From Chrysiogenales bacterium (GTDB taxonomy: Bacteria > Acidobacteriota > Aminicenantia > UBA2199), in NCBI GenBank assembly GCA_963700535.1, contig CAVOXU010000002.1, forward strand, positions 18,063 through 82,062: 64,000 bases of DNA. Reading direction: 5' to 3'. The position numbers and the translations under genes are program-made. The notes beneath the pieces are model-generated. The model saw only the letters and a list, made by a program, of their open reading frames with translations. It was not told the DNA's origin and ran no database searches. Positions 2,886 through 60,525 of this stretch are shown piece after piece (position 1 is the stretch's first letter; every line of letters starts with the position of its first letter).

Positions 2886-2888
2886 TTC

Positions 2889-5573: not shown

Positions 5574-5585
5574 GTTCTGCTCCTC

Positions 5586-5924: not shown

Positions 5925-5943
5925 GCATACCTCCAAAACGATA

Positions 5944-17253: not shown

Positions 17254-17271
17254 TGGCGTTTTTCATTTGTA

Positions 17272-37139: not shown

Positions 37140-37317
37140 AGGTGCCAGCAAGCGGTTAAAAGTGACCGCTTCTGGGAAAATCAAACGCAGCAAGGCTTTC
37201 GGTTCACATTTACTGACCAAGAAGAGTTCCAAGCGCAAACGCAACCTGAAGCAATCTACACTGGTGGTTAAATCAGAGTTCAAGAAAATGAAAGAACTGC
37301 TGCCGTATTCAAAATAG
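37117..37317 (+). CDS. rpmI: 50S ribosomal protein L35
   Basis: [24 protein letters not shown].. with a GGAGG RBS. The ORF-track TTG at 37093 is probably upstream of the true start. Confidence 0.9.
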
Positions 37318-37326
37318 GAGGACATT

Positions 37327-37680
37327 ATGCCGCGAGTTACCAGAGGAAACAAAAAACTTTTACGCCGCAAGAAAATACTGGTCATGGCCAAGGGATTTTG
37401 GGGCGCCAAGCGCAAGAATTATCGTTCGGCCAAGGAATCGGTGGAACGGGCAATGGTCTATGCTTACCGCGACCGGCGCAACCGCAAGCGGGATTTCCGC
37501 ACCCTGTGGAATGTTCGCATCAATGCGGCAATCCGTGAATTTGACATGAGCTACTCGGTGTTCATCTGCAAATTGAAAAAAGCCAATATTCAGTTGAATC
37601 GTAAAATGCTGGCCAACCTGGCTGCCAATGAACCCGAAACGTTCAAATCCATTGTAGAAAAAGCCAAATCAGTGGTATGA
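37327..37680 (+). CDS. rplT: 50S ribosomal protein L20
   Basis: MPRVTRGNKKLLRRKKILVMAKGFWGAKRKNYRSAKESV..RDRRNRKRDFR.LWNVRINAA. Confidence 0.95.
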   Translation: MPRVTRGNKKLLRRKKILVMAKGFWGAKRKNYRSAKESVERAMVYAYRDRRNRKRDFRTLWNVRINAAIREFDMSYSVFICKLKKANIQLNRKMLANLAANEPETFKSIVEKAKSVV

Positions 37681-38804: not shown

Positions 38805-38807
38805 ATC

Positions 38808-40832
38808 ATGAAGATTAACATCGCTTACCTGAAGAAGTTCGTTGCCTTTGAATTGGATGACGCTGCCCTGAAGGAGCTCCTGGCCGCCATCGGCCTGGAA
38901 GTGGCCGATTCACAGGTGATCGAAGGCCAAACTGTTTTTGAGATCGAGATCACTCCCAACCGGCCCGATTGGCTTTCCCATTACGGCGTGGCCCGGGAAA
39001 TCGCCGCCAAGAACGGACAAGAACCATTTGTGCCCATGACGGTCGACGCAGTGGCGCTGGGCAAGGGCGAAAAAGGATTTGCCATCACAATTGAGGATGC
39101 CGCGGATTGCTGGCGCTATTCCGGTGCCATCGTCCGTGATGTGCAAGTGGTGGAATCGGATCCGGCGGTGCAAAAGCTGCTGATCAGCCTCGGATTGCGG
39201 CCGATCAACAACATCGTTGATGTTTCCAACCTGGTGATGATGACCTGCGGACAGCCGCTGCATATTTTTGACCTGGAACAGCTGCAGGGAAAGCAGATCC
39301 GCATCCGCCGCGCCAAAAAGAATGAGAAGATCCGCTTGCTGGATGAACGCGAAGTCGCCCTGAACGAGAATTTTCTCCTGATCGCCGACGCTTCGCGGCC
39401 CCTGGCCCTGGCCGGAATTATGGGCGGTCTGGAATCGGGCATCAGCCTCAGCACCCGCCATATTTTCATCGAAAGTGCCTGTTTCAATCCGCTGGTCGTA
39501 CGTCGCGCTTCGCGCCTTCTTGGTTTTAAAACAGACGCCAGCTACCGCTTTGAAAGGGGCATGGACGTTGAGGCCACCATCCCGGCTTTGAAAATGGCCC
39601 TGCTCCTGCTCGGCCAAACGCAGCCCCCGGCCTATTTTCAAGATGTCTATCCCCGGCCCCTGACTCCCACGGTTGTCCCTTTGGAAAAAGATTACCCCAG
39701 CCGGCTGACCGGTATCAATATTGAACCGGATGACAGTTCCGCCATTTTGCAGCGCCTGGGCTTTAAACTGCAGGACCAGGGCAGCCGCTGGCAGGTGCAG
39801 GTGCCCAGCCATCGCGTTGACGTCTCCTGCAAAGAGGACCTTGTCGAGGAGATCATTCGCATCCACGGCTACGAGCACCTGCAGGCGCAGATGCCGCTGT
39901 CGGCCAATCCGATTTTGCGCATCGATCGCGAGCGGGAGATCGTGCAGCGCTTGAAGAACCAACTGGCCGCCAGTGGTTTCAACGAAGTGATCAATTACGT
40001 TTTTCAGAGTCCGGAAGAAAACGCGCTGTACGACCCGCAGCTGCCGCCCCTGGCCCTGAAGAATCCTTTGGGGAAAGATTTTTCCGTGATGAAGAATTCC
40101 CTGCTGGCCGGCATGCTGAAGAATACCGCTCTCAACGCCAACCAGTACTGGGAAAGGATCGCCCTTTTTGAAATCGGCAATGTGTTCGACCAGCACGAGG
40201 GCATGATCCTGGAAGAAAAAAGACTGGCCATCAGCGCCTATGGCCTGAAGCAGAAAAAGGATTGGCGCAGTCGGGAAGAGGTATTCGATTTTTCTTATTT
40301 CAAATCCCTGCTGGCCATGCTCGGCAGGCTCGTGCGCCTGGACTTCGCTTTTAAAAAGCAAACGCACCCGGCTTATATCGACAGCTGCTGTTTCGTAATT
40401 GAAATTGACGGCCGGCCCTGCGGTCGGCTCGGGGAAATGACCCCGGAATTCTGCCGCTATTTCAAACTGGAGCGGCCGGTTTTTGCTGCCGAGATCGATC
40501 TGCAGGCTTTGGTCGCGGCAGTAGGTGAAAAATGTTTCAGCGGCATGAATCGTTTCCCGGCCGTTCGCCGCGATTTCACTTTCCTGATGGCCAAAACCGT
40601 CAGTTATGAGGAGTTGCGCTCCTGCCTCGATCGTTTGCAGCCCGAGGTTCTCGAAAGTTTCGAGTTGACCGATGTTTTCCAGGGACCATCCGTCCCGGCC
40701 GACAAGGTCAGCTTTTCCATGGGATTCACCTACCGGGCCCAGGACCGCACCCTGACCGGAGATGAGGTGAACTCCATCCACCTGGAATTCACCGCGAAAA
40801 TGGTGGAACAGATGCACTTAATTCAAAGATAA
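38808..40832 (+). CDS. pheT: Phenylalanine--tRNA ligase beta subunit (674 aa, lacking the N-terminal OB-fold tRNA-binding domain)
   Basis: B1 start MKINIAYLKKFV.. runs directly into ..EIEITPNRPDWLSHYGVAREIAA. B3/4, B5 and FDX-ACB C-terminal regions are present. Confidence 0.95.
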   Translation: MKINIAYLKKFVAFELDDAALKELLAAIGLEVADSQVIEGQTVFEIEITPNRPDWLSHYGVAREIAAKNGQEPFVPMTVDAVALGKGEKGFAITIEDAADCWRYSGAIVRDVQVVESDPAVQKLLISLGLRPINNIVDVSNLVMMTCGQPLHIFDLEQLQGKQIRIRRAKKNEKIRLLDEREVALNENFLLIADASRPLALAGIMGGLESGISLSTRHIFIESACFNPLVVRRASRLLGFKTDASYRFERGMDVEATIPALKMALLLLGQTQPPAYFQDVYPRPLTPTVVPLEKDYPSRLTGINIEPDDSSAILQRLGFKLQDQGSRWQVQVPSHRVDVSCKEDLVEEIIRIHGYEHLQAQMPLSANPILRIDREREIVQRLKNQLAASGFNEVINYVFQSPEENALYDPQLPPLALKNPLGKDFSVMKNSLLAGMLKNTALNANQYWERIALFEIGNVFDQHEGMILEEKRLAISAYGLKQKKDWRSREEVFDFSYFKSLLAMLGRLVRLDFAFKKQTHPAYIDSCCFVIEIDGRPCGRLGEMTPEFCRYFKLERPVFAAEIDLQALVAAVGEKCFSGMNRFPAVRRDFTFLMAKTVSYEELRSCLDRLQPEVLESFELTDVFQGPSVPADKVSFSMGFTYRAQDRTLTGDEVNSIHLEFTAKMVEQMHLIQR

Positions 40833-40843
40833 GGAGCACGAAG

Positions 40844-41047
40844 ATGAGTTTCAAAGAGTTCGATAAACTTGAAGAAAAGATCAACCGCCTGATTGCCGGA
40901 CTGAAAGCCCTGCGGGATGAAAACCAGAAGTTGAAAAAGGAATTGCAGGGAGTCAGGCAGGATTCTTCCCAGCGTGACAGTGAAAAGAGCGAGATCCGCA
41001 AAAAAATCGCTTCGCTGATCGACCTGGTTGATTCGATCGGGGAATAA
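40844..41047 (+). CDS. ZapB-like coiled-coil cell-division protein
   Basis: 67 aa: ..FDKLEEKINRLIAGLKALRDENQKLKKEL.. resembles the ZapB N-terminus. It lies directly upstream of zapA. Confidence 0.5.
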   Translation: MSFKEFDKLEEKINRLIAGLKALRDENQKLKKELQGVRQDSSQRDSEKSEIRKKIASLIDLVDSIGE

Positions 41048-41352
41048 TGTCCAGAGAAATTGAAGTTCAGATCACCGGCAAGAAATTCGTTTTTCAGCTG
41101 GCCGACGATATCCAGCCAGAGGAATTTCTGCAGGTGGTTGAATATGTGGAAAATAAGATCAACAAAATCAAGAGCAGGATGAACGAATTGGACTCCCTGA
41201 AATTGGGATTGTTAACTTCGATAAACATTGCCCAGGACCTGTTTTCCTTGAAAAAGGAAAATGCGAAACTGGCGCAGATACTTGGGAGAATCGACACCTT
41301 GTTGTCGCCTGAAAGTGAGGATGGAAAGTTAACTGTCAGTTTGTCATCCTGA
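41047..41352 (+). CDS. zapA: Cell division protein ZapA
   Basis: 101 aa: ..IEVQITGKKFVFQLADDIQPEEFLQVVEYVENKI...LLTSINIAQDLF. Confidence 0.8.
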   Translation: MSREIEVQITGKKFVFQLADDIQPEEFLQVVEYVENKINKIKSRMNELDSLKLGLLTSINIAQDLFSLKKENAKLAQILGRIDTLLSPESEDGKLTVSLSS

Positions 41353-41367
41353 AAAAGGAGGAAGACA

Positions 41368-42921
41368 ATGTCCGAGATCGCTTTTTTGCTGTTCGGCATT
41401 TTACTGGGCGGCGGTGCGATATTTTTATTAAAAAAGAAGATCTTTGCCGGTGAATACAAAAAAGTTCAGGTTTATAAAAATCAACTGGAGGCCAGGAACC
41501 TGGAAGAACTGGAGCGGGCCAAGAAACAATCCCTGCTTGAGTTGAAGGAAGAATTCGCCGAATGGAAGAACGAATACAACAGCCGGCACAACGAAAAGAT
41601 CAACCGCCTGAATGTCATGGAGAAACGTCTTATCCAGAAGGAAGAAAATCTGGACAAACGCTACACCAACCTGGAAAACAAGGAAAAGGAATTAAAGAAA
41701 AAAGAAAGGGACCTGGCCATTCAGGAAGAGGAAAACGCGGCCGTTAAAAGCAGCGTCAACAAGCTTTATGAAGAGCAGCGGCTGAAGTTGGAAAAAATTT
41801 CCGGGCTTTCCGTTCAGGAGGCCAAGGAATTGATCATCAAGCAATATGAAAGTGAAGCCAGGCTCGAATCGGCGCAAAGGTTGAAACTTATCGAAGAGGA
41901 GTTAAAGGAAAAAAGCCAACAGCTGGCCAAGGATGTAATATCCAACGCTGTGCAGCGTATCGCCACCGAGCACGTGGTTTCCTCATCGGTTACGGTCATC
42001 GATCTGCCTTCGGATGAGATGAAGGGCCGGATCATCGGCCGCGAAGGCAGGAATATCCGCGCCCTGGAAAATGCCACGGGAGTGGATTTCATCGTCGACG
42101 ACACCCCGGAAGCGATCCTGGTCTCTTCTTTCGATCCCATCCGCCGCGAAATGGCCAAACAGGCCATTGAAACCCTGATCGCAGACGGACGCATCCATCC
42201 GGCCCGGATCGAAGAGGTCGTCGACCGCATCAAGGGCAATTTCGATACCTACCTGCGCAAGCAAGGCGAAGCCGCGGTCACGGAGCTCGGAATCAGGGAT
42301 CTGAACACTGAGCTGTATTTCTACCTGGGCAAGCTGAAATTCAGGACTTCCTTCGGCCAGAACGTGCTGGAGCATTCCAAGGATGTGGCCATGATCGCCG
42401 CAATGCTGGCCCGCGAGATCGGCGCCAATGTCAATATCTGCAAGCGCGCCGGTTTGCTGCATGACGTGGGCAAGGCCATTGACCGCGAAACCGAAGGCAC
42501 GCATACGTCGTTGTCAGTTGACCTTACCAAGAAGTTCGGCGAATCCGCAGCGGTCCAGGACGCCATCGCCTCTCACCACATGGATACCGAGTTCACTTCT
42601 ATCGAAGCGGTCCTGATCCAGGCCGCGGACAGCATTTCCGCCGCCCGGCCCGGGGCCCGGCGCGAGATCCTGGAAACCTACATCAAGAGGCTGGAAAAAC
42701 TCGAGGAGTTGAGCAAATCCTTTACCGGGGTGACCAAAGCCTTCGCCTTGCAGGCCGGGCGCGAAGTACGCGTCATCGTCAACGCCAACGAGCTCGATGA
42801 CAACCGTACTTTTTTGATCTGCAAGGACATAGCTAAAAAGATTCAGGAAGAGATGGAATATCCAGGACAGATCAAGGTTTCAGTGATCAGGGAAGTGCGG
42901 GCCATCGAATATGCCAAATAA
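41368..42921 (+). CDS. rny: Ribonuclease Y
   Basis: N-terminal TM segment, coiled coil, KH domain (..MKGRIIGREGRNIRALENATGVDFIVDDTP..) and HD domain (..HSKDVA..LLHDVGKA..). Confidence 0.95.
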   Translation: MSEIAFLLFGILLGGGAIFLLKKKIFAGEYKKVQVYKNQLEARNLEELERAKKQSLLELKEEFAEWKNEYNSRHNEKINRLNVMEKRLIQKEENLDKRYTNLENKEKELKKKERDLAIQEEENAAVKSSVNKLYEEQRLKLEKISGLSVQEAKELIIKQYESEARLESAQRLKLIEEELKEKSQQLAKDVISNAVQRIATEHVVSSSVTVIDLPSDEMKGRIIGREGRNIRALENATGVDFIVDDTPEAILVSSFDPIRREMAKQAIETLIADGRIHPARIEEVVDRIKGNFDTYLRKQGEAAVTELGIRDLNTELYFYLGKLKFRTSFGQNVLEHSKDVAMIAAMLAREIGANVNICKRAGLLHDVGKAIDRETEGTHTSLSVDLTKKFGESAAVQDAIASHHMDTEFTSIEAVLIQAADSISAARPGARREILETYIKRLEKLEELSKSFTGVTKAFALQAGREVRVIVNANELDDNRTFLICKDIAKKIQEEMEYPGQIKVSVIREVRAIEYAK

Positions 42922-43726
42922 TAAGGTCAGGCTCATCATGATCGGCGATGTGGTCGGCCGTTTCGGCCGCAAATTCGTCCAGGCGGTCCTGCCGCTGATC
43001 AAAGCCAAATTCAGTCCCGACGTGGTGATCGCCAATGGCGAAAATTCGGCCGGCGGCCTGGGTGTCATCCGCCGCACCGCCGATGAACTGTTCGAAGCCG
43101 GAGTTAATGTCCTGACCGGGGGCAACCATATCTGGGACAAGAAAGAGGCGCTCGATCTGCTCAAAACTGAAAGACGCATACTCAAGCCCCTGAATTACCA
43201 TGTTTCGACCCCGGGCAACGGCTCCATGGTCTACAAAACCGCCGAGGGTAACCCGGTGGTGATAATCAGCCTGCAGGGGCGGGTATTCATGGAGCCGGTG
43301 GTGGACAATCCGTTCACAACCATAGACGAATTTCTGAAAAAGAATTCCCATTCGATCGTGCTGGTCGATTTTCATGCCGAGGCCACGGCCGAAAAACAGG
43401 CCATGGGATTTTTTCTTGACGGCCGGGTCAGCGCCGTGCTGGGCACTCACACCCACGTGCCCACCGGCGACGCCCGCCTGCTGGAGAACGGCACGGCCTA
43501 CCAGACCGATGTCGGCATGACCGGCGCCCTGGATTCGATCATCGGCATGAAGCGCGAGCCCATCATCAGCAAGTTCTATAACGGCATTCACCAGAAATTT
43601 GAGGTGGCCGGGGGCAGGCAGGTTCTGGACATGACCATGGTCGATGTTGACGCCACAAGCGGCAAAGCGCTGCATATCGAGGCCCACCGCTATAACGAGG
43701 CGACTTACGGCCAACAGCTCGCTTGA
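42911..43726 (+). CDS. ymdB: YmdB-family metallophosphoesterase (2',3'-cyclic-nucleotide phosphodiesterase-like)
   Basis: ..VRLIMIGDVVGRFGR...VIANGENSAGGLG...LTGGNHIWDK...VDFHAEATAEK...GTHTHVPT. rny-ymdB synteny as in Firmicutes. Confidence 0.9.
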   Translation: MPNNKVRLIMIGDVVGRFGRKFVQAVLPLIKAKFSPDVVIANGENSAGGLGVIRRTADELFEAGVNVLTGGNHIWDKKEALDLLKTERRILKPLNYHVSTPGNGSMVYKTAEGNPVVIISLQGRVFMEPVVDNPFTTIDEFLKKNSHSIVLVDFHAEATAEKQAMGFFLDGRVSAVLGTHTHVPTGDARLLENGTAYQTDVGMTGALDSIIGMKREPIISKFYNGIHQKFEVAGGRQVLDMTMVDVDATSGKALHIEAHRYNEATYGQQLA

Positions 43727-43745: not shown

Positions 43746-44036
43746 CTATTTTTTATTTTTTTCAGGCCATTGGCGCGCGCCATGGAAGATGCGCAGGATT
43801 TCCAAGCGATTGCCTTTTACGCGGTAGATCACGATATAGGGCGTTCCGGCGACAACCAATTCCCGGGTTTTCGCGACTCGTCCGGCCTTGCCCAACGCGG
43901 GATTCATGGATAGCAATTCTACTGCTTCTAAGACCTTATTGATCTCACTTGCGGCTGCCGGCGGGTTTTCAAAAAAAATATACTCATAAGCCTCTTCCAG
44001 ATCAATGGCCGCTTTTTCCAGCCAGAATATTTTCAA
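43746..44036 (-). CDS. parE: ParE/RelE-family type II toxin
   Basis: 96 aa: ..AAIDLEEAYEYIFFENPPAAASEINKV...LGKAGRVAKTRELVVAGTPYIVIYRVKGNRLEILRIFHGARQW. 4-nt overlap with the upstream antitoxin. Confidence 0.85.
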   Translation of the reverse strand: MKIFWLEKAAIDLEEAYEYIFFENPPAAASEINKVLEAVELLSMNPALGKAGRVAKTRELVVAGTPYIVIYRVKGNRLEILRIFHGARQWPEKNKK

Positions 44037-44299
44037 GGCTTTTTCTCTTGCCGCTGCGCCATTCGCGTTTTCAATTTGTTCACCACATCCTCATGCTCGA
44101 TGAATTTGGCATGAGACGAATCGGCTTCTTTTACCGCCTCCTGGATCGCCTGTATCTGCCATTCCTGGGTGACCACGAACTCCTCTATGGCTTTGGCGGC
44201 CCAATAGGCTTTGGTTCGCTCAGTCGCTTCGGCCAAATGTTTAAGCTTGTCCTTTATGGCTGAGGGTAACCGGATGGTTATAGTCGATGTTTGCGACAT
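44033..44299 (-). CDS. Ribbon-helix-helix (CopG/ParD-like) antitoxin
   Basis: 88 aa with an N-terminal RHH (ITIRLPSAIKDKLKHLAEATERTKAYWAAKAIEEFV). AGGAG RBS. A TTGTAA-16-TATAAT promoter-like sequence lies upstream at 44317-44344. Confidence 0.75.
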   Translation of the reverse strand: MSQTSTITIRLPSAIKDKLKHLAEATERTKAYWAAKAIEEFVVTQEWQIQAIQEAVKEADSSHAKFIEHEDVVNKLKTRMAQRQEKKP

Positions 44300-44581
44300 T
44301 GTGTTCTCCTGTGTACATTATAGTATAATAAATACAATTTACAACTTTTATTTAAAATAAGTCTGCCGATATTGTCATTTTTGATGTGGGTCGGGACTTA
44401 CGATTTTTATTGACATTTATCGCAATCACTCCTACAATTTGTTCTACGTGCAGAAAACAGCATTCTTCCCACCTGTTGGCCTGGCCTTTTGGGTATGGTT
44501 GCCACATTTTTCCGCTGCGGCAGGGAAAAACCACGGCTTGTCCTTACTGGGCAGAAATCCGTTCCTGACGCCAATCCGGCA

Positions 44582-45610
44582 ATGCAGCAAAAAATAATTA
44601 AAATTTCCGCCTTCCTCTGCCTGGGGATGTTCATCTACTTCATCATTCGCGCCAATCCCGGCGAACTGTTGCGTCTCATCGGCCGTCTACCACTTTTTGG
44701 GATCATGCTGCTTATCTTTCTGCGCTTCGTGTTCTGGATAATCCGCACGGTTTCCTGGCGGCTCGTTCTTGCCCGCTGCAGCAGTGATCGTGTCTCCTTC
44801 TCCACCCTGTTCTGGGCCGAACTGGCCGGGCATGCCATGGGATATTTCACCCCTTCGGCCAAGCTGGGGGGCGATGCCATCCGCGCCATGATGCTCCACC
44901 CTGTCCCCAAGAACCAGGCGCTGGCCTCGGTGGTGATAGACAAGACGATCGAGCTGATCGCCACCATCCTGATGATGAGCCTTGGTCTGTTCATTACACT
45001 GGTGCGTATCCGCATGCCCGCCACGCAAAGACTTGTTTTTCTGTCGCTGACGGCGCTGATGGCCCTTTTCATTTTCATTTTTTTCCGGAAACAAAAGAAA
45101 GGACTCTTTATCTGGATCCTGGATTCATTGAAAAAATTGCGCATCAAGTCGAAATACTTTGAGCGGAAGCGGGAACGCCTGATTGAAACCGACAAGATCA
45201 TTGCCGATTTCTATTCCAGCCATCGCCGGCCTTTTCTTTATTCTTTCATCCTTTACATCTCTATGGTCTTGCTTTGGGTGGCGGAAATGCACCTGAGCTT
45301 CCTTTTCCTCGGCATGAGCAGCATCACGTTGCTGAAAAGTTTTCTGATAACTACCCTGGGCATCGTCGCCAATATTGTGCCCGTGATCCCGGCCGGAATC
45401 GGGATCTATGATCTGAGTTACCTGCCCATATTCGCCATTTTCAGGGTTCCGTTGAGATTCGGCATCACCGTCATTTTGCTGCGTCGGTTGCTGAATCTGC
45501 TCATGGCCGTCATCGGCCTGCTACCCATGCTGCGGATGAAATCGCACCAGGCCCTCAAAGGGGAAGCTGCTGCCGTTCAGATCTCCAACCCGTCAGCAGG
45601 AAATAACTGA
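44582..45610 (+). CDS. UPF0104 / lysyl-PG-synthase-TM-type (flippase-like) integral membrane protein
   Basis: About 8 TM segments with the family-typical ..W(R)LVL......S......F.....G.......P.AKLGGD..RA.. block (FWAELAGHAMGYFTPSAKLGGDAIRAMML). Start set at the ATG at 44582; the ORF-track start at 44489 adds a non-hydrophobic leader. Confidence 0.75.
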   Translation: MQQKIIKISAFLCLGMFIYFIIRANPGELLRLIGRLPLFGIMLLIFLRFVFWIIRTVSWRLVLARCSSDRVSFSTLFWAELAGHAMGYFTPSAKLGGDAIRAMMLHPVPKNQALASVVIDKTIELIATILMMSLGLFITLVRIRMPATQRLVFLSLTALMALFIFIFFRKQKKGLFIWILDSLKKLRIKSKYFERKRERLIETDKIIADFYSSHRRPFLYSFILYISMVLLWVAEMHLSFLFLGMSSITLLKSFLITTLGIVANIVPVIPAGIGIYDLSYLPIFAIFRVPLRFGITVILLRRLLNLLMAVIGLLPMLRMKSHQALKGEAAAVQISNPSAGNN

Positions 45611-46266
45611 CACGATAGATCAGATTCAATACCGTTTCCGCCAAAAGCGCATAGATGATCAGATCCAGGCGGTTCAGTAGTCCCATGACGAAAATAAAAA
45701 AAATGGCCAGGGCGCGGCCTTCGCCGCTTTCACCGCTTTTCGCATCGTGAAAGCGGTTGAAGATGTAGTAGAGGATGACCTGAAGCAAATACAAGGAAAG
45801 GACGAACAAGCCCAGGATCAGCCTGTTTTTGTCTCCGTTGCCGGCGCGGTAGAAACCGATGGTGATCCCCAGAAGCACGCAGAAATCAGATATGCGGTCG
45901 AGGAACAAATCAAGGAAAGTGCCGAAACGGCTGCAGGTGTTCCGGACTCGGGCCAGCATGCCGTCGGCGCAGTCAAAGATCAGGGAAACTTCGATCAACA
46001 CGCCTGCCCACAGGATGGTGCCGGCTGTGTCCCCAGGCGAAGAGGGCCGCGCCGGAAATGCCGAAAATGAAGGCCATGACTGTGAGCTGATTGGGAGTGA
46101 TGGCGGTGGGGAAAACCAATGAAACCAAAATGGAAGCAAGGGGACGATTTATCCATTTCTCAAAATTCAGGAAACGTACCAAAAAACCTTTGCGATCCTT
46201 CTTCAACTGGGCCTGGTAAAACGTATTATCTGCTTTTCTCTTTCTTCTTAGCCATTGTTTCAGCAT
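45555..46266 (-). pseudogene. CDP-alcohol phosphatidyltransferase-family enzyme, one frame disruption
   Basis: Fragments 45973..46266 and 45555..46139 join at about 46030-46035. The complete motif D-x2-DG-x2-AR-x8-G-x3-D-x3-D is present (DCADGMLARVRNTCSRFGTFLDLFLD). Confidence 0.8.
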
Positions 46267-46330
46267 ACATTATATCCACGCTGGGGATAAAAGTCAAAAA
46301 AAGGGGCGGAGTTCGTCCTCAGGTCCCGCT

Positions 46331-47454
46331 TCATTCCTGGGGGGAATTGAGGATTGCTTTCAGGATGGCTCGAACGTCGGCCTTGTTTCAGGGCGACGAT
46401 ATTGTTGTCCATACGCCCCTTGGTAAAAGATTCCCGCACCAGTGCATCCAGATCGGCGGGAGCAACGCCGTAAGCGGAGAGGGAAAAAGGCATTCTGGCA
46501 GCTACAAAGCGTTGCATCCGGCCAAGGGCTTCTGCGACATCGGTTCCGTCAAGAAGAATACGCAGCCGTTTCGCCTTGGCCGGGATTTGCGGCGCGTTGA
46601 TGTTCCAAAGGGGCAGAAGGGGCAGCGAACAGGCAATTCCATGGGGAATGCCAAAACGCAGCGTCAAGGGGTAAGAAATGGAATGGGCGGCCGCGGTCTT
46701 GGTGTTGGAAAAGGCCAAGCCGGCGAAAAGAGAAGCACGCAAAAGGTTGGCGCGGACCGCATCCGGAACAGGATCAGCCAGGCGCTCAATGTTCTCGAGA
46801 ACCAACTTCACAGCAGCCAGGGCAAATTCATCCGACAGCGGATTTTCATTGCGGTTCCACAGCGCTTCCATGGCATGCGCCAGGGCGTCGAGGCTGGAGG
46901 CAAAGGACGCGGACAACGGCAGGCTTCTTGTCAAGGCAGGGCAGTACACAGCAAAATCCGGGAACATGCCCGGGTGGGAAAGCGAATGCTTGCGGCTGCC
47001 TTTTTTGTCCCAGATTGTCGCCCACATGGTCAGCTCGGCGCCCGTACCGTGCGTGGTGGGAGCGGCGGCCAGCAGCGGGCCGCGATTGCCAATCCCGGTG
47101 GGGACTGCAGCCAGCAGATCATCTATGCGCGTGCGACCACAGGCCAGGGCCAGGCGGACAACTTTGGCCGTATCCAGGACCGAACCACCGCCGATGGCCA
47201 GTATCCAATCGGGAGCGATCCGCTGCGCGAAATCAAGCGCCTGCTGCATATTGCCCTCAGTGGGATTCGCTTCAATGTCGCTGTACACCGGAACCCGGCC
47301 GAGCCATTCCAGGCTCGAGTCGGCCGCGATGAGCGTCCAGGAAAGCAGGTGAATAAACGAACAACAACCCTTTGCCGGGAATGATCAGCGCGGGCAGCGT
47401 TGCGGCCAGGTCGTCTGTCCAGTGGATGACGACGGGATTGGTGTAATGCCACAT
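46331..47454 (-). pseudogene. Iron-containing alcohol dehydrogenase (FomC/PhpC-like phosphonoacetaldehyde reductase candidate), two frame disruptions
   Basis: Fragments 47272..47454 and 46260..47288. Landmarks: ..ILAIGGGSVLDTAKV.. and metal-binding His contexts (..LDALAHAMEALW.., ..AAAHSISYPL..). Shifts at about 47340 and about 46380. The corrected C-terminus reads ..ALKQADVRAILKAILNSPQE*, ending at 46331. Confidence 0.8.
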
Positions 47455-47457
47455 GGA

Positions 47458-48552
47458 TCAATCCAGAAAGGTCATCAAGGCATCGCGCATCTGTTCGGGA
47501 GTCTGTTCGGGCCGCGGCAATCCGGCGGGTGTGCCTTGGCTGATACGTACATGGACGAATAGGGGCTTGGCTGCATGGGGCAGGGTGGATAAAAGTTTCT
47601 TGAACTGGCCGGTGGTGGTGACTTGCTCCTGAGCCGCGTAGCCGCAGGCGCGGGCCACGGCGCAGAAATCTATCCCGGCGGCTGTGGAAGGCTGGCCACC
47701 GGTGGATTCGTAGGCCTGGTTGTCAAACAGTACATGCACAAGGTTTTTAGGCTGATAGTGCCCCACGGTAGCCAATGAGCCCATTTTCATCAGCAGGGCG
47801 CCGTCTCCATCGAGTACGAAGACTGTGCGCCCGGGATGTTGGTTGGCCAGGCCCAATCCCAGGGCGGGCAAACAGCCCATGGAGCCCATCATGTAAAATC
47901 TGCCCCGGTGATCGGTATACTGCTGAAGTTCACGACCTGAAAACCCGGTAGCCCCCAGCAGAATGTCTCGAGGGTCAGCCATCTCTGCCAGCAAATTGAT
48001 GTAAGCCAGGCGCGGGGCGAATTCTTCATCGATCGGGGCGGTGGACTTTTGCTCGGCAGTAAAAAAATTCTTGGGGATAATGAAGGCGAACGGTGTGGCC
48101 GCGGTACGGCAGTGTTCTTGCGCCTGCGCAAGCGCTTGGCAAAGTGCCGTGTTTCCCTTTTCCAGGACCAGATGCGGCACATGCAACTGCTCCAGCAATG
48201 CCTGCAGGACATCCCCCATCACCCGGTGCTGAGGAGCGTCCTTCTGCCCCGGTTCACCTCGCCAGGAAATCAGCAGCAGTGCCGGCAGTCGGTAGAGCAA
48301 TTGCAGGGAGGAAAGGGGGTTGACGGCGTTGCCGAAACCGTCATTTTGCATATATACTACGGGCAGTCGTCCGGACAGGGCGAACCCCGCAGCCAGGCCC
48401 ATGGCTTCGCCTTCGGAAGTGCAGATGTAGTGCTCGGTTTCTGCAGCGGCCGCCAGGTGATGGATCAGGGTCGAGAAAACGGAACAGGGCACTCCCATGA
48501 ACGGGGAAAACGATGCGGAGCGCAAGCTGCGGATGAAATCGGCAGCGTTCAT
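47458..48552 (-). CDS. ppd: Phosphonopyruvate decarboxylase (ThDP-dependent)
   Basis: 364 aa: ..FMGVPCSVFSTLI...TSEGEAMGLAAGFALSG...GNAVNPL...; ThDP motif ..VLDGDGALLMKMGSLATVG...VLFDN.AYESTGGQ. Confidence 0.9.
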   Translation of the reverse strand: MNAADFIRSLRSASFSPFMGVPCSVFSTLIHHLAAAAETEHYICTSEGEAMGLAAGFALSGRLPVVYMQNDGFGNAVNPLSSLQLLYRLPALLLISWRGEPGQKDAPQHRVMGDVLQALLEQLHVPHLVLEKGNTALCQALAQAQEHCRTAATPFAFIIPKNFFTAEQKSTAPIDEEFAPRLAYINLLAEMADPRDILLGATGFSGRELQQYTDHRGRFYMMGSMGCLPALGLGLANQHPGRTVFVLDGDGALLMKMGSLATVGHYQPKNLVHVLFDNQAYESTGGQPSTAAGIDFCAVARACGYAAQEQVTTTGQFKKLLSTLPHAAKPLFVHVRISQGTPAGLPRPEQTPEQMRDALMTFLD

Positions 48553-48556
48553 TGCC

Positions 48557-49835
48557 TTATTCCCCCCCCGGAATCAGTTGGAGGATCTCCTTGATCGGCA
48601 GGCAGTTCTTTTCGCATTCGTAGGCCCGCTGATATCGCAGAATGGATTCGGCGGTACGCACCATGCTTGGATAAGCGCTGCGCAGAAGTTGGTTGGCATA
48701 AATAACCATGCGCACGCCCGCAGCGACCAGATCCTTTTCAAATGTCTGGCTGTACGTGGATGGGACCGCCACCAATGGCACACAGTTGCGGAATGACGAA
48801 TATTCTCTGGCAGAAGCGGATGATCTCGGCGGGATTCTTGCTTTTGCTGTGAATCATGATGGCGTCGGCACCGGCGTCGATGTAGGCTTCGGCGCGACGC
48901 AGGGCGTCGTCCATGCCGGCGCCGAGGATCAGGCTTTCGATGCGGGCGATGATCATGAAGTCATCGGTCAGCTGGGCCTTTTTGCCGTTGCGGATCTTTT
49001 GGGAAAAGCCGGCGATCGAATCCTGCTGCTGCTTTCCGCTCGTCTCGAGCAGCGAGTTTTCCTTCAGGCCTACCTTGTCCTCAATGATGACGGCCGAAAT
49101 GCCCATGCGCTCAAGGGTCTTTACCATGAGGTAGAAGTGCTCGGGCACTCCGCCCGAATCACCGTCGAAGACAATCGGCTTGGTAGTGATTTCGAGGATG
49201 CTGTTGAGCGTAAGCATTCGTGAAGTGAAGTCCACGCTGCCGTTGTCCGGGCGCCCCTTGGCCGTGGAATCGGTGAGGCTGCTCAACCAGATGGCGTCAA
49301 ACTCACGCGTCTCATTATCGACCGTCACCCGGGTTTTTTCCACTATCAGTCCAGCCAGGCCGTTGAAAGCCTCCAGCACGCGCACCAGGTCCTTGGCCGC
49401 CAACAGGCGACGCAGCATTTTTAAGCGGGTCCCCGGCGTCGTCCCGATCTCCTTCAGAGAGTTGTTGAGTTGCGTGGAAGAGATGCCCATGGTATATCGC
49501 GGCTCGATGAGCTGGCCGCCCCACTCTTTCAATGTCCGTACCACCCGGTCACGTATCTCGTGCTGCACTCCGGTCCGCCAATCGTCCCCATGCACCACGA
49601 AATCCGGTTGCAGGCGGCGCAGGTTCGGCACGTAATCAAGGGTTTCCTGCAGGACCACCCTTGATACGCCCTTGATGTTTTCCACGATCAGCCGGCGCTG
49701 TTCCATGGACATGTAGGGCAGGCGTTTGTAACTGGCGATGGCGCTGTCTGTCAGCAGGCCAATGACGACCCGGCCATACTTTTGGGCCTCGCGGATGATG
49801 TTGAGATGCCCGGGGTGGATCAAATCGGCGCTCAT
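48557..49835 (-). pseudogene. Bifunctional cytidylyltransferase-phosphoenolpyruvate mutase (Fom1/PntC-Ppm-like fusion), frame-disrupted near the C-terminus
   Basis: N-terminal HxGH nucleotidyltransferase ([13 protein letters not shown]) and a PEP mutase/isocitrate-lyase-fold core (..[36 protein letters not shown]..). The C-terminal fragment 48557..48781 ([20 protein letters not shown]) joins at about 48806-48812. The N-terminus may extend to the ATG at 49890 through the T9 run at 49867-49875. Confidence 0.85.
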
Positions 49836-50035
49836 GGCGACATAGACTGTTTTTGTGGCCTTTCGCTTTTTTTTTGCTGTTGGCGATCATTTTTTTGCAC
49901 CTGGATGTTGGCGTTTTCTCCAATTCAAGTTGTTATTCTTGCATATTTTTCAGAAAATAAAAAGACTTTTTGGCTGGATAATAAATAACCTTGTTGGTTT
50001 CCCGCAACCGGGTCGTTTGTTTCAAGCCTGGCATA

Positions 50036-50064
50036 TTGCCGATTGCCGGCTGATGCGCTATAAT
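50036..50064 (+). promoter_or_regulatory. Sigma70-type promoter candidate for xseA (TTGCCG-17-TATAAT)
   Basis: TTGCCGattgccggctgatgcgcTATAAT, about 70 nt upstream of the ATG at 50133. Confidence 0.45.
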
Positions 50065-50132
50065 CAAGCCTGGAGAAAATATGTCTTTTCCCGAAACATG
50101 GTGATCAAGCGGAGAAGGCCATAAAAAGCGAT

Positions 50133-51480
50133 ATGTTACCCATTGAAGAAAAAGTCTACAAGGTGTCGGAGCTGACCCAACTGGTCAAGCTGACTCTGGA
50201 AACCCAGTTCTCCGCCATTGCGGTCCTGGGCGAGGCTTCTGGCGTGGTCCTGGCCAGTTCGGGCCACCTCTATTTCACGCTCAAGGACGGCGCCGGGGCT
50301 ATGAAAGTGGTCATGTTCCGCGGCCAGCTGCAGAAAAGCGCACTGAACCGACTGGAAAACGGCCAGCAGATCATTGTCCAGGGGACGCTTTCCGTATATC
50401 CCCTGCGCGGCGAGATGCAGATCATCGCCAACAATATGCGTCTGCAGGGCATCGGCGATATTTTTGCCGCCCTGGAAAAACTAAAAAAAACCTACCAGGA
50501 ACAGGGTTATTTCGACGAGCGAAGGAAGAAACCACTGCCCTTGCTCCCCGGCCGTATCGGCGTAGTCACCTCGCCGACCGGGGCGGCGGTGCGCGATATC
50601 GTGCGCATCCTGCGCCGCCGTTTCCCGGGCATTGCCATCGTCATTTTTCCGGCCAAGGTGCAGGGGGAAGGAGCCGCCGCCCAGATTGCCTTGGGCATTG
50701 AATATTTCAACAACGCCGACCAGGATGAAAAGGTGGATGTCTTGATCGTTGGCCGGGGCGGGGGCAGTTACGAGGACCTGTGGGCTTTCAACGAGGCGCC
50801 TGTGGTCGAAGCCATTTACCACAGCCGTATTCCGGTGATCTCCGCGGTCGGCCATGAGATCGATTTCACCATCGCCGATTTTGTCGCTGATATGCGAGCG
50901 GCCACGCCTTCGGCCGCGGCCGAGATCGTGGTGGGGAAAAAGGACGAATTCATGAGCCGTATTGATTTTTTGCGCCACAGCCTCATGCGCCACATGGAAA
51001 AACTGCTGCACGAAAAAAAATCCACTTTGGGAGCAATTGCTCATGGAATCAAGTCTGGCCTATTTCCCCGGGCACTTGCAGGAGTTGGACCAGCGCTTGG
51101 ACAGCGGCGAGTTCACCTTGAATCGCCTTTTCCAGCAATCACTGAATCGCGGACTCAGCCGCTGGAACCAAGCCGTGCAGCGCTTTGCCGCTTTTGACTT
51201 GGGCGCCATGCTGAAAAACAGGGATCTGCAGGTTCAGAACCTGGGCACAAGCTTGGCTGCGAATTTTTCCCAAAGGCTGCAGCAGCGGCGGGAAAAAATC
51301 AATGTGCTGGATTCCAAGTTGGCCGGCATGAACCCTGAAAGTGTTCTGGCCAAGGGCTATTCCATTACCACCGACCAGCATCAGCGACTGGTCAAGGATT
51401 CTTCCGTTCTGGCCGCGGATGAAAAGATCTCTATCCGTTTTGCCCGCGGCATGACCGCTGCCAGAGTGATCAAGGAGTGA
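50133..51480 (+). pseudogene. xseA: Exodeoxyribonuclease VII large subunit, one frameshift
   Basis: Fragments 50133..51197 and 50962..51480. OB-fold N-terminus (..VYKVSELT..LK..LE..F....V.GE.S), catalytic core ..IGVVTSPTGAAVRDI..RGGGSYEDLWAFN..ISAVGHEIDFTI.., and the C-terminal coil in the second fragment. The shift is in the A8 run at 51013-51020. Confidence 0.85.
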
Positions 51481-51483
51481 ACC

Positions 51484-51723
51484 ATGAAAAAAGAAACCCC
51501 TGATTTTGAAAGCGCCCTCAGGAAACTCGAAGCCATCGTGCAAAAACTTGAGAATCCCGAAGTTCCCCTGCAGGAGGGTTTTGCATTGTATGAAGAAGGC
51601 ATGAAATTGACCGGGCAGATGAAAAAGGAGCTCAACGACATCGAAAAAAAAGTAAAAATACTGCAGAAAGGCGCCAAGGGCGACCTGCAGGAAGCCGACT
51701 TCGAGCCGTCGGACAATGACTGA
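51484..51723 (+). CDS. xseB: Exodeoxyribonuclease VII small subunit
   Basis: 79 aa: ..FESALRKLEAIVQKLENPEVPLQEGFALYEEGMKL. Confidence 0.9.
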   Translation: MKKETPDFESALRKLEAIVQKLENPEVPLQEGFALYEEGMKLTGQMKKELNDIEKKVKILQKGAKGDLQEADFEPSDND

Positions 51724-52571
51724 TTACCTGCAGCGACTGACCACGGCTGTCGATCGCGAACTCCTTGATGGTATCCAGCCCGGGAACGGTACGCTGGAAG
51801 CCGCTATGCACTACGCGCTGACCGTGCGCGGCAAGCGTCTGCGGCCGCTGCTGTTCCTCACCCTGCTCGATGCCAGCCGCATTGAGGCGGAGCGCTTCAT
51901 CGGCCTGGCCTCCGCCCTGGAGATCATCCATACCTACTCGCTGATTCACGACGATCTGCCGGTGATGGACAATGATGACCTGCGCCGCGGCATGCCCACG
52001 GTCCACCGCAAGTTCAACGAAGCCGTGGCCCTGCTGGCCGGCGACACGCTGTTGACCTTTGCTTTTGAAAAGATCACTTCCGCCCCACTGGCCGCCGAAA
52101 AGATTGTGGCCATCATGGGCATCATTACCCGCTGCATCGGCAAGCAGGGCATGGCCCAGGGGCAGGCCCTTGACCTGGAATTTTCTGGGCAAGCCGAGAT
52201 CATCGACGACATCCACCGCCTTAAAACAGCCGAATTGATCAAGGGTTCGCTCCTGGCGGCCGCCCAGATTGCCGATTTCGACAGACCATCGCCAGCAATT
52301 GCTGGCCCGGGCCGGCATTGCCCTGGGCATGGGTTTTCAATTGGCCGACGACCTGCTGGACATCACCGGCGCCGAAGACAAGGTCGGCAAGAAATTGAAC
52401 AAGGACCAGGCCAACCGCAGCCCCAACGCCGTTCTGTATTTCGGGGAGCAGGCGGTCAGGGAGAAAATAGACTCCTATTACCGTGAGGCGCAAGCCCGGG
52501 TCGGAGAACTGGGGATCGAATCCCCTCCCTTCCTGTTTCTGATGAAAAGCATGTTGTACCGGAGCCAATAA
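51716..52571 (+). pseudogene. ispA: (2E,6E)-farnesyl/geranyl diphosphate synthase, one frameshift
   Basis: Fragments 51716..52486 and 52269..52571. First DDxxD (LIHDDLPVMDNDDLRRG) and second DDxxD (FQLADDLLD). Shift at about 52281-52286. Confidence 0.85.
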
Positions 52572-54511
52572 TGGCATTGCTCGAAAAGATACTTTCTCCA
52601 GCCGATATCAAGGGACTTACCCTGGAAGAACTGTCCCGATTGTCGGCGGAGATCCGGGAATTGCTGGTGCAGGTGGTCTCGCAGAACGGCGGGCACCTGT
52701 CATCCAACCTGGGGGTTGTGGACCTGACCCTGGCCCTGCACCGGGTTTTCGCTGCGCCGCTGGACAAGATCATCTGGGATATCGGACACCAGAGTTATAC
52801 CCACAAGATCATTACCGGCCGCCGGGAGAAGATATTCTCCATCCGCAAGAAAGACGGCCTGCTCGGTTTTCCTGACCGGGCCGAAAGCGAATACGATGTA
52901 CTGAACACCGGGCATGCCTCGACCTCGCTCGGTTTTGCCTCGGGCCTGGCCATCGCCCGCGACCGCCGCGGTGAAAACTTCCATATCGTCACCGTGATCG
53001 GCGACGGGGCCCTGACCGGCGGCGTGGCCCTGGAAGCCCTGAACCACATCGGCCAGGTCAAGCAGCGCTTGATCATCATTCTCAACGACAACAAGATGTC
53101 GATCTCTCCCAATGTCGGCGGCATATCCCGCCACTTGAACTACCTGGTTTCCGGCCGGCCCTACATCCGCATGAAGGAAGTGATCCAGAATATTCTCAAG
53201 TCCATTCCCGGCCTGGGCCCATCGATGTATGAACTGGCCAAAAAATTGGAAGTGCTGATGCGTACCATGATGGTGCCCGGTTCGCTCTTCGATGAACTGG
53301 GCATCAAATATATCGGCCCGGTCAACGGCCATGATTTCGGCGAAATGTTCAAGGAGTTCCAGGCGGCCAAGAAGCACGATTTTCCGGTCCTGCTGCACGT
53401 GGTGACCCGCAAGGGCCAGGGCTATGTGCCGGCCAGTGATGATCCCAGTTCCTTTCATTCCTCAGCCCCCTTCAATATCGAAAACGGCAAATTCATCGGC
53501 GGCTGCAAAAGCCCCTCCTATTCGGAAGTTTTCGGGCAGACGGTCCGGCGCCTGGTCGAACGGGACCGCCGACTGGTAGCGCTGACCGCGGCCATGCCCG
53601 AAGGCACCGGCCTGGACGCCGTGCAAAAGGAATTTCCGGAAAATTTCTTCGATGTCGGCATTGCCGAGCAGTATATGTTCGATTTCGCCGGCGGCCTGGC
53701 CTTGGGCGGCTTCAAGCCGGTGCTGGGTGTATACTCCACTTTCATGCAGCGGGCCGTGGACCAGATCATCCACGATATTTCGCTGATGCGCATTCCGATC
53801 CTGGTCGGGATTGGACCGGGCCGGACTGGTGGGCGGCGACGGCCCGACGCATCAGGGGCATTTACGACATTGCCCTGCTGAATCCCGTCCCGGATATCGT
53901 GCTCATGGCTCCCAAGGATGAAAATGAGCTTCAGCACATGGTTTACTCCGGCAGCCTGCTGCCCAAGCCTGTTTTTATCCGCTATCCCAAGGAACCGGGC
54001 CGGGGAGTGCCCCTGGATAAGGATTTGCTTGAAATTCCCGAGGGCAAGGCGGAAGTGCTGCGCCGCGGCGGCCACGCCCTGATCCTGGCCGTGGGCCCGC
54101 TGGTGTACCGCGCCCTGGAAGCAGCCGAGCAGCTGGCGCTTCAGGACAAGAATCGAAACAACCGTGGTTAATGTCCGTTTCATCAAGCCGCTGGACCGGG
54201 AACTGATCTTTTCCCTGGCGGCCGGAATCAACAAAATCATCACCGTGGAGGATGGAACGGCCATGGGCGGTTTCGCTTCCGTCATCCACAAGGAATTCCT
54301 GCAAACCGTGACCAACAGACACGAATTTCTCACCTTGGCCGTCGGGGCAGGCGTCATGCCCCTGGCTTCCCGGGAAGAGCTGCTGGAGCATTTCGGTTTG
54401 AACAGCGACGGCATATACCGCCAGGTTCGCGCTTTCGTCAAAGGCAGGCTAGGGGAGGGTTTTACTCCTGAACGCCTCCCTCTTACAAGAGCAGCTGGAA
54501 CGTATCCTTGA
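52571..54511 (+). pseudogene. dxs: 1-deoxy-D-xylulose-5-phosphate synthase, three frame disruptions
   Basis: Fragments 52571..53881, 53899..54171 and 54164..54511, plus a short middle frame encoding DRAGLVGGDGPTHQG. ThDP motif GDGALTGG..LNDN. Extra G at 53813-53814, the G4 run at 53855-53858, and an indel at about 54148-54152. TAATG overlap with ispA. Confidence 0.9.
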
Positions 54512-60311: not shown

Positions 60312-60525
60312 GGGCGGCCTGCGTCATCGCAAAGGCAAGGTGGGCGAGGGTCCCCCCAGGCCGGGATACGCGTGAACCGCCTTTCAAAAATAAATTCTCT
60401 ATGAAATAAAGCAAAGCGCATGCCGAAAGCAAAGATATTCATCCTTAAGCGGATGCTTTGCGACGGAAACAGTGCTTGTTATTTTCAAGCCAATCCCATA
60501 AAATGGAAAACGGAGGTACTCCATC

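Follow-up and report, generated by a model that had tools for sequence, protein, structure and literature searches.

A conserved phosphonate cassette with a six-helix CDP-alcohol phosphotransferase and a flippase-like partner: a candidate 2-hydroxyethylphosphonate head-group module in Aminicenantia

A conserved five-gene phosphonate cassette

We analysed a stretch of 64,000 nucleotides (nt) from contig CAVOXU010000002.1 of a Chrysiogenales bacterium assigned by GTDB to the Aminicenantia (hereafter, the window), and describe in it a phosphonate cassette that spans positions 44582–49890. Four co-directional, tightly packed minus-strand genes encode enzymes of phosphonate synthesis, activation and putative transfer, and a fifth gene, encoding a flippase-like membrane protein, converges on them. 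We give about even chances to the reading that these five genes form a functional head-group module, in which CMP-activated 2-hydroxyethylphosphonate (CMP-HEP) would be the donor, the 2-hydroxyethylphosphonate (HEP) group would be placed on a membrane-associated acceptor and the UPF0104-family partner would handle the product; we infer the HEP product, the CMP-HEP donor, the acceptor and the flipping alike. The gene arrangement itself is far beyond chance, since about 19 distinct loci share this gene order, in at least three genomic contexts, at transferase identities from 97% down to 43%. These loci come from a tblastn census of a sample of 9 metagenome loci and 80 genome loci, mostly from Aminicenantes/Acidobacteriota. 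The genes of the cassette are as follows.

48557–49890, minus strand: cytidylyltransferase (PF01467)–phosphoenolpyruvate (PEP) mutase fusion (CyTase-Ppm), about 443 amino acids (aa) after removal of two 1-nt insertions
47458–48552, minus strand: phosphonopyruvate decarboxylase (Ppd), dependent on thiamine diphosphate, 364 aa, intact
46331–47454, minus strand: iron-type alcohol dehydrogenase (Fe-ADH, here ADH), probable phosphonoacetaldehyde reductase (PhpC/FomC type), 373 aa without two 1-nt insertions
45555–46255, minus strand: CDP-OH_P_transf protein (the transferase), six-helix, AF2299/DIPPS/PIPS branch, 232 aa without two 1-nt insertions
44582–45610, plus strand: LPG_synthase_TM/UPF0104/PplT-type membrane protein (LPG_TM, flippase-like), 342 aa, PF03706

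All five genes lie where a sequence-only reading of the window, made before any database search, had placed them, and their identities were upheld by Pfam and NCBIfam matches. The profile searches suggested there matched PF01467, PF13714, PF02775/PF02776, PF00465, PF01066 and PF03706, and the neighbourhood survey, likewise suggested, found the four-gene core to be syntenic in the loci counted above. Gaps of 3–64 nt had been given between the minus-strand genes. The close packing stands, with 4 nt between CyTase-Ppm and Ppd and 3 nt between Ppd and ADH, but the 64-nt value had been measured from ATG 46266, which comparison with relatives shows to open a shifted frame and not to be the start of the transferase. 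The transferases of the relatives start MAKKKEK(K/R)DNTFYQ, and the start in the window, judged from them, is ATG 46255 (MAKKKEK...), which leaves a gap of 75 nt after ADH. The convergent LPG_TM gene overlaps the 3′ end of the transferase gene by 56 nt.

The phosphonate-making enzymes

The fusion protein matches PF01467 (1.5e-13) and PF13714 (2.5e-41). Its CyTase motifs HPGH (HxGH) and RYTMGISST (RxxGISST) are intact, and it carries the Ppm-specific motif EDK-x5-NS, which sets Ppm apart from other members of the isocitrate-lyase superfamily. On the PEP mutase model TIGR02320 (cutoff 319.55 bits), the window fragments score 288 and 75 bits and the intact orthologue in the near-identical locus L010 scores 382.2 bits. 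A search with the CyTase domain retrieved the structure of the Fom1 CyTase domain (5x3d; E = 2.4e-55) at 64% identity over 135 aa. The N-terminal HxGH/RxxGISST domain fused to Ppm, together with this likeness, places the protein among the Fom1-type cytidylyltransferases and bears out the Fom1-like CyTase–mutase fusion that had been proposed from the sequence. The Fom1 CyTase domain cytidylylates HEP (PMC6697681), and CyTase-Ppm fusions of the same kind also occur in 2-aminoethylphosphonate (AEP) clusters (PMC8942020). Ppd scores 376.4 bits on TIGR03297 (cutoff 312.5) and matches PF02776 and PF02775.

The ADH matches PF00465 and PF25137, and the GGGS motif and the D/H/H/H metal ligands can be read from its sequence. 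Its best NCBIfam model is TIGR03405, the phosphonate-associated Fe-ADH, which leads the next model (142 bits) by about 120 bits. The 91%-identical orthologue P0121 is annotated as phosphonoacetaldehyde reductase by NCBI, as are many relatives of 42–50% identity in Acidobacteriota, Spirochaetota and Marinimicrobia; a PDB search returned generic Fe-ADHs only and no structure named as PhpC-type. The gene keeps its position after ppm and ppd in all loci with the four-gene core. We consider it a probable phosphonoacetaldehyde reductase of the PhpC/FomC type. It occupies the slot in which AEP clusters usually carry a transaminase, as had been pointed out before, and neither the cassette nor the large open reading frames (ORFs) scanned in the window yielded a class-V aminotransferase. 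On these two grounds, the identity of the ADH and the missing aminotransferase, the expected phosphonate is HEP rather than AEP.

The transferase belongs to the AF2299/DIPPS branch

The transferase scores 51.9 bits on PF01066 (cutoff 22), and its motif DCADGMLARVRNTCSRFGTFLDLFLD is the full D-x2-DG-x2-AR-x8-G-x3-D-x3-D signature, complete as first described; the eight residues of the signature are invariant across 55 transferase homologues. The protein reaches no named NCBIfam equivalog cutoff. Its best NCBIfam match, in the intact form, is the DIPPS domain, and its score of 65 compares with cutoffs of 170, 180 and 580 for phosphatidylinositol-phosphate (PIP) synthase, archaetidylinositol-phosphate synthase and DIPP synthase, respectively. 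Scores on PgsA (TIGR00560, 21 vs 109) and PssA (TIGR00473, 27 vs 107) also stay below the cutoffs. In a sequence search of the PDB, AF2299 was closest (2.6e-16 with a single sequence and 6e-27 with a family profile), followed by PIP synthases and IPCT-DIPPS; Pss and CEPT1 were marginal and PgsA was not matched by sequence.

The predicted fold points in the same direction. An AF2 model of P0001, a protein 93% identical to the transferase, has a mean confidence (pLDDT) of 85.8 and shows six transmembrane (TM) helices plus juxtamembrane helices, and Foldseek ranked AF2299 first (TM-score 0.64), then PIPS and DIPPS, then PgsA and lastly CHPT1/CEPT1/PSS. The ten-helix CEPT1/CHPT1 architecture, with its added C-terminal module for diacylglycerol, was not recovered, with six TM helices in 232 aa and Foldseek E-values of 0.05–0.25. 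An ordinary PgsA, Pss or EPT was rejected on the NCBIfam scores, the PDB sequence search and the Foldseek ranking. These Pss/Pgs/EPT clades are the ones that had been named for the transferase before; it is instead a six-helix, AF2299/DIPPS/PIPS-like protein.

The subfamily is small, with 46 of 1.84 billion representatives at E ≤ 1e-30, and many of the relatives that come next have an NTP_transferase domain at the N-terminus, as in IPCT-DIPPS. Two family-invariant arginines, one after the fourth aspartate of the signature (D4) and one in GExRAL, have aligned counterparts in AF2299 and DIPPS, in a region where PIP synthases bind the phosphate of the acceptor (PMC6506517). Only two positions, N30 and E206 (L010 numbering), split the phosphonate-type transferases from their paralogues, too few differences to infer specificity.

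The transferase and the flippase-like protein are a co-duplicated pair

The LPG_TM protein scores 102.4 bits on PF03706 (4.3e-29; cutoff 33.4) and 86 on TIGR00374 (cutoff 43.2); its score of 88 on the HpnL subfamily falls below the cutoff of 195.65, and a PDB sequence search returned nothing. Neighbours were counted in the 62 non-redundant loci that had sufficient flanking sequence. In 45 of these, the transferase gene has an LPG_TM gene no more than about 3 kb away, and in 34 the LPG_TM gene is convergent and abutting, as in the window; among the 18 loci that contain Ppm, it is present in 14. The tree of LPG_TM proteins mirrors that of the transferases, with the same grouping and a Pearson correlation of pairwise distances of r = 0.82 (49 pairs). 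At least a dozen assemblies, judged by record names, hold two different locus types, and the transferase and LPG_TM are therefore a co-duplicated pair rather than genes that merely share ancestry. The link between the cassette and a flippase-like protein, proposed earlier from one locus, thus recurs widely.

Proteins of the UPF0104 family are known to accompany lipid head-group enzymes, as in MprF and in gpgSDF/hexSDF, which encode GpgF and HexF (PMC12713373), and YbhN stands beside the lipid enzyme ClsB in clsB-ybhN (10.1101/2022.03.11.483950). A gene annotated as 'LPG synthase'-like also adjoins both inositol-lipid clusters of Bacteroidetes, including the unconfirmed route by an NTP transferase and a CDP-alcohol transferase (PMC9246714).

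Transferase loci carry exchangeable activation genes

The transferase subfamily is modular. In type I loci, which include that of the window, CyTase-Ppm, Ppd, ADH and the transferase follow one another in this order, and in type I′ the same genes are convergent. A stand-alone TagD-like cytidylyltransferase adjoins the transferase in type II, a PF12804/PF00483 nucleotidyltransferase accompanies it in type III, an inositol-phosphate synthase is added to the type III set in type IV, and type V consists of the transferase and LPG_TM only. Overall, a nucleotidyltransferase lies within about 4 kb of the transferase gene in 43 of the 62 loci. In a neighbour-joining tree, transferases with the same kind of neighbourhood cluster together, those of type I in a single clade.

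Some loci combine or extend these sets. In L006 (1–8702), the phosphonate cassette is directly preceded by co-directional genes for an inositol-phosphate synthase, an IPCT-like nucleotidyltransferase (128 bits on the IPCT domain), LPG_TM and an Omp85-like protein; downstream, the opposite strand encodes another CDP-OH transferase, which is shorter. In a Marinimicrobia contig (L091, 3273–10285), the HEP core of CyTase-Ppm, Ppd and ADH stands beside LicD and two TagF-like CDP-glycerol glycerophosphotransferases; because CMP-HEP, like CDP-glycerol, retains a free hydroxyl, the arrangement hints at a polymer resembling teichoic acid and decorated with HEP or even built from it. A Spirochaetota contig (L090, 295–10885) has the HEP core among three CDP-OH transferases of about 400 aa, a PLDc_2 protein and a Wzx-type polysaccharide flippase, and is a larger, different phosphonate surface cluster. 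As for the taxonomy of the sample, the assemblies nearest to the window (L010, L011 and L012, at 96–97% transferase identity) are labelled Chrysiogenia, 'Patescibacteria group' and Chrysiogenales, and L013–L015 (72–80%) are labelled Aminicenantes; at least some of these labels must be wrong.

The frame breaks are consensus errors

Three of the four enzyme genes are broken in the window, at two 1-nt insertions each, which confirms the frame disruptions seen in the sequence-only reading; the doubt that it cast on the functionality of the cassette did not hold, given intact relatives and purifying selection. The reference for the breaks was L010 (JBDRQC010000007.1), which is 94–97% identical in nucleotides over 34.8–56.2 kb of the window. 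Relative to L010, each of the six breaks is one inserted base.

49875: 1-nt insertion within a 9-nt A/T run, shifting the frame close to the 5′ end of CyTase-Ppm, from the alignment to L010
48808: 1-nt insertion in the C-terminal part of Ppm, absent in L010, L011, L001, L012, L013 and L002
47330: 1-nt insertion in the N-terminal part of ADH, absent in six relatives
46385: 1-nt insertion, frameshift hiding the true C-terminus of ADH (...ADVRAILKAILNSPQE, then the stop), from the alignment to relatives
46232: 1-nt insertion just past the true start of the transferase, from the alignment to relatives
46029: 1-nt insertion between TM1 and TM2 of the transferase, from the alignment to relatives

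Most of the six inserted bases are missing also from five relatives besides L010. Like insertions break the adjacent genes xseA (51032), ispA (52281) and dxs (at least three: 53806, 53860 and 54150), the pieces of which are parts of one gene each according to NCBIfam, and no such insertions occur in 34.8–43.7 kb. The insertions are private to the window, lie mostly outside homopolymers and cluster in about 8.5 kb (46029–54481), with essentially none in the adjacent 9 kb (34842–43719); the cluster looks like a local drop in consensus quality. All five genes are intact in L010 and L001, with lengths of 443, 364, 373, 232 (258 from an upstream ATG) and 342 aa. Once the insertions are removed, the ratio of non-synonymous to synonymous substitution rates (dN/dS) between the window and L010 is 0.08–0.24 for the cassette and 0.03–0.20 for housekeeping genes, and the cassette is under purifying selection.

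The frame breaks are thus assembly consensus errors and the cassette is not decayed, since the organism cannot have lost dxs and ispA together with it. That the cassette would be a decaying, non-functional cluster, with real frameshifts and a pathway dead in this organism, is very improbable: six frame breaks across three of four enzymes do speak for it, but every one is a 1-nt insertion lacking in up to six relatives, the same lesions fall within the same 8 kb in the essential dxs and ispA as well as in xseA, and both the intact orthologues and the dN/dS values argue for a live cassette. The pseudogene reading was rejected on the alignment to L010, L011, L001, L012, L013 and L002 and on dN/dS.

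Proposed mechanism and alternative products

In the mechanism that we propose, Ppm would convert PEP to phosphonopyruvate, Ppd would pull the reaction on by forming phosphonoacetaldehyde, and the PhpC-type Fe-ADH would reduce this to HEP, which the CyTase domain fused to Ppm would join with CTP to give CMP-HEP. The transferase would then take CMP-HEP as its 'CDP-alcohol' donor and pass the hydroxyethylphosphonyl moiety to a membrane-associated acceptor, onto a hydroxyl of either diacylglycerol or the polar head of an existing lipid, with release of CMP, and the UPF0104/PplT-type partner would translocate or otherwise handle the phosphonolipid. Kennedy-type phosphotransferases accept CMP-aminoethylphosphonate, and the earlier statement that CDP-alcohol transferases can use CMP-phosphonates is sound. 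A donor logic in which the head group is cytidylylated by the product of a neighbouring gene and then handed on by the membrane transferase fits the comparative data: most transferase loci have a nucleotidyltransferase nearby, the transferase clades track the activation genes, NTP_transferase fusions occur among the relatives, and LicD, TagF-like enzymes or larger CDP-OH transferases stand beside the HEP core in other phyla. A membrane-associated product is favoured because the published parallels of UPF0104 proteins are all lipid-related and because the unconfirmed Bacteroidetes route is essentially our type IV. We also entertain a broader picture, which is possible although we lean against it: a modular, swap-in head-group system in Aminicenantes and relatives, with one duplicated pair of AF2299-like transferase and UPF0104 protein per activation module (HEP; a TagD-like module, probably for glycerol phosphate; an IPCT-like module with inositol-phosphate synthase (MIPS), for inositol phosphate), the version in the window making a membrane lipid with a C–P-bonded HEP head group.

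Several observations weigh against an HEP module directed to lipids. The transferase appears to have only six helices, and its nearest relatives, AF2299 and DIPP synthase, 'do not process lipids'; among CDP-alcohol phosphotransferases the six-helix enzymes are said to use soluble acceptors, and the users of diacylglycerol usually carry three to four extra helices (PMC4634129). The aligned arginines may mark an anion-binding acceptor pocket, which would suit a phosphorylated soluble acceptor. On the side of the donor, the likeness of the CyTase domain to Fom1 cannot by itself separate HEP from AEP specificity, and the ADH scores 260.6 bits (window, repaired) and 258.7 bits (L010) on TIGR03405, under the equivalog cutoff of 423.7. 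The LPG_TM gene is missing from 4 of the 18 phosphonate-type loci. In one Aminicenantes lineage (L003–L005 and L019) it is replaced by a phosphatase of the PTP/dual-specificity type, which follows the transferase with a 4-nt overlap (for example at 7122–7865 in L003) and has a signal-peptide-like N-terminus, so that it is predicted to be secreted. Finally, no fusion between the transferase and LPG_TM was present among the 120 listed transferase matches, 64 LPG_TM matches and 10 long relatives, where the fusions seen were with NTP_transferase, methyltransferase and DUF4202/HD domains only, and a Rosetta-stone link was rejected on these sets.

A part of this evidence is shared by an alternative that we hold to be unlikely, though a live rival, in which the lipid or glycan acceptor of the sequence-only reading, still a prediction, gives way to a soluble one. 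Following DIP-synthase logic, CMP-HEP would remain the donor and the acceptor would be soluble, probably a phosphorylated alcohol (inositol-1-phosphate or glycerol-3-phosphate) or HEP itself, giving a dimer or oligomer; the outcome would be a cytoplasmic or exported phosphonodiester, for example an osmolyte or phosphorus store, and not a membrane lipid. The soluble substrates of the nearest solved relatives, AF2299 and IPCT-DIPPS, the best NCBIfam match to the DIPPS domain, the shared arginines, the inositol-phosphate synthase and IPCT-like gene directly upstream of the cassette in L006, and the NTP_transferase fusions that recall IPCT-DIPPS would all suit such a product. They are set against a conserved, co-evolving flippase-like partner from a family whose known contexts are all lipid-related (PMC12713373; PMC9246714), against DIPPS and PIPS scores far under the cutoffs, and against the finding that no phosphatase or exporter is conserved with the cassette. 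Reversed roles seem quite improbable: CDP-diacylglycerol would be the donor and HEP (HO-CH2CH2-PO3) the soluble acceptor, by analogy with glycerol-3-phosphate for PgsA and inositol-phosphate for PIP synthase, and the product would be phosphatidyl-hydroxyethylphosphonate, with a phosphatase-proof terminal phosphonate. A six-helix enzyme with a soluble acceptor and a product that is a lipid would be consistent with the fold as well as with the flippase-like partner (PMC4634129), and an arginine-lined acceptor pocket could bind a phosphonate (PMC6506517), but the intact Fom1-like CyTase domain would be left without a role, the recurrent nucleotidyltransferase neighbours and fusions of paralogous transferases would go unexplained, and the partners of the HEP core in other phyla include LicD and TagF-like enzymes, users of CDP-type donors. 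Scarcely credible, lastly, is a diffusible phosphonate natural product, such as fosfomycin, dehydrophos or phosphinothricin, of which the early steps are of the same Fom1/Fom2/FomC type, or a methylphosphonate pathway: the cassette has no radical-SAM methyltransferase, epoxidase, HEPD/MPnS-type dioxygenase, non-ribosomal peptide synthetase or ATP-grasp gene in it or beside it, its flanks are housekeeping genes, and its conserved fourth gene is a membrane phosphotransferase.

Comparison with known systems

The module proposed here, with CMP-HEP as donor and a membrane-associated acceptor, shares its first steps with fosfomycin biosynthesis in Streptomyces, where Fom1 is the same CyTase-Ppm fusion (the CyTase domains being 64% identical, as above), Fom2 the Ppd and FomC the reductase (PMC6697681). 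Unlike those clusters, the cassette has no Fom3 radical-SAM methyltransferase, Fom4 epoxidase or FomD in 44.5–50.1 kb, and it lies among housekeeping genes of an Aminicenantes-like host; that it is not a fosfomycin cluster had already been concluded from the lack of a radical-SAM or epoxidase gene. In the fosfomycin pathway CMP-HEP is methylated and hydrolysed, whereas here it would go to a membrane transferase. The Pnt pathways and the Burkholderiales_CDP-OH/group-1 phosphonolipid clusters have Ppm, Ppd, cytidylyl activation and a CDP-alcohol-type phospholipid gene in common with the cassette, and a surface or lipid phosphonate is predicted in both cases (PMC6697681, PMC8942020). The Burkholderiales_CDP-OH clusters have a seven-gene core with AEP transaminase, alpha-ketoglutarate oxygenase, two PntC and two phospholipid genes (PMC8942020); in the cassette, by contrast, an Fe-ADH replaces the transaminase, there are one CyTase and one small transferase, and a UPF0104 partner is added. 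As no aminotransferase or oxygenase was found in the cassette or among the scanned ORFs of the window, it does not belong to that group.

By sequence and fold, the closest systems are the IPCT/DIPP synthase and AF2299 of Archaeoglobus (PDB 4mnd, 4o6m), six-helix enzymes like the transferase. The logic of IPCT-DIPPS is also alike, a cytidylyltransferase making a soluble CDP-alcohol that the membrane enzyme uses; here, however, the CyTase is fused to Ppm instead of the transferase, a CMP-phosphonate would serve as donor, there is a conserved flippase-like partner and the scores are under the cutoffs. The putative Kennedy-like inositol-lipid cluster of Bacteroides/Prevotella combines an NTP transferase, a CDP-alcohol phosphatidyltransferase and MIPS with a 'lysylphosphatidylglycerol synthase'-like neighbour (PMC9246714). 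Type IV loci of Aminicenantes have the same gene set, and the cassette of the window is of the same design with the head-group supply genes swapped; it differs in the expected HEP, in place of inositol, and in having no HAD hydrolase, and the Bacteroides pathway is itself unconfirmed. As in MprF, GpgF, HexF and YbhN with ClsB, a protein of the same Pfam family stands beside an enzyme for an unusual head group. Flipping has been demonstrated for MprF only; in the cassette it is predicted from the genes, and the partner gene is convergent and overlapping, neither co-transcribed nor fused.

Novelty and significance

Literature searches turned up no account of this HEP cassette or its AF2299-like transferase subfamily, nor any report of phosphonates in Aminicenantes, and we know of no described lipid class with a C–P-bonded 2-hydroxyethylphosphonate head group. 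Surface decoration is the presumed role of most bacterial phosphonate gene clusters, and the Aminicenantes are an abundant, uncultured sediment lineage. Each gene of the cassette is correctly named by automatic annotation, and the logic of Ppm, Ppd, cytidylyl activation and surface transfer is already established (PMC6697681, PMC8942020). The CDP-OH-associated phosphonate clusters known so far are of the AEP type, with transaminase and oxygenase, and products are known for only 2 of the 10 HEP-type cluster families and are not lipids in either case (PMC8942020). Of what is new here, the modular pair of transferase and UPF0104 protein and a minimal, expressible system for CMP-phosphonate transfer are the most useful.

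The step after cytidylylation, that is, which enzyme acts and on which acceptor, is largely uncharacterised, and the cassette could show what a CMP-HEP transferase makes. It comprises just four enzymes and a membrane partner, forms a minimal, self-contained system and has intact orthologues, and is thus convenient for expression. A lipid product, if confirmed, would extend the known lipids of bacterial membranes by a phosphatase-resistant head group and give a function to a widespread AF2299-like subfamily and its UPF0104 partner; if the modular reading is true, the long-missing acceptor step for CMP-phosphonates would be identified. Phosphonate synthesis genes are common in Aminicenantes, a point relevant to where the HEP in environmental organic phosphorus comes from.

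Flanking regions and other features of the window

The cassette is flanked by xseA/xseB/ispA/dxs on one side and by a toxin–antitoxin pair, ymdB and rny on the other. Two promoter-like sites were found as consensus matches only.

46269–46297, minus strand: promoter-like site TTGACT-17-TATAAT in the gap between ADH and the transferase, 11 of 12 consensus positions matched
44410–44438, plus strand: promoter-like site TTGACA-17-TACAAT upstream of the LPG_TM gene

In the same scan, terminator-like sites were no commoner than in shuffled sequence, and an Rfam scan returned two tRNAs only, with no riboswitch near the cassette. The toxin–antitoxin pair, a ParE-family toxin (43746–44036, PF05016) and a RelB-like antitoxin (44033–44299), lies between ymdB and the LPG_TM gene; this spot measures 863 nt in the window and 225 nt in L010, an indel difference between near-identical genomes.

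Farther from the cassette, a tricorn-type protease (PD40/DPPIV_N, then Tricorn_C1/PDZ_Tricorn) occupies 60502–63604 as two overlapping ORFs (60502–62580 and 62501–63604), a split that is probably another frameshift error. Directly after polA, a 590-aa ORF (57566–59338) combines Dak2, FakA-middle and DegV domains and is FakA-like with a full DegV match. Tandem paralogous genes for NAD-dependent epimerases/dehydratases (391 and 337 aa) lie at 16078–18267, and two genes for MacB-type ABC permeases (799 and 898 aa; MacB_PCD and FtsX) stand beside a PadR-family regulator at 402–6089.

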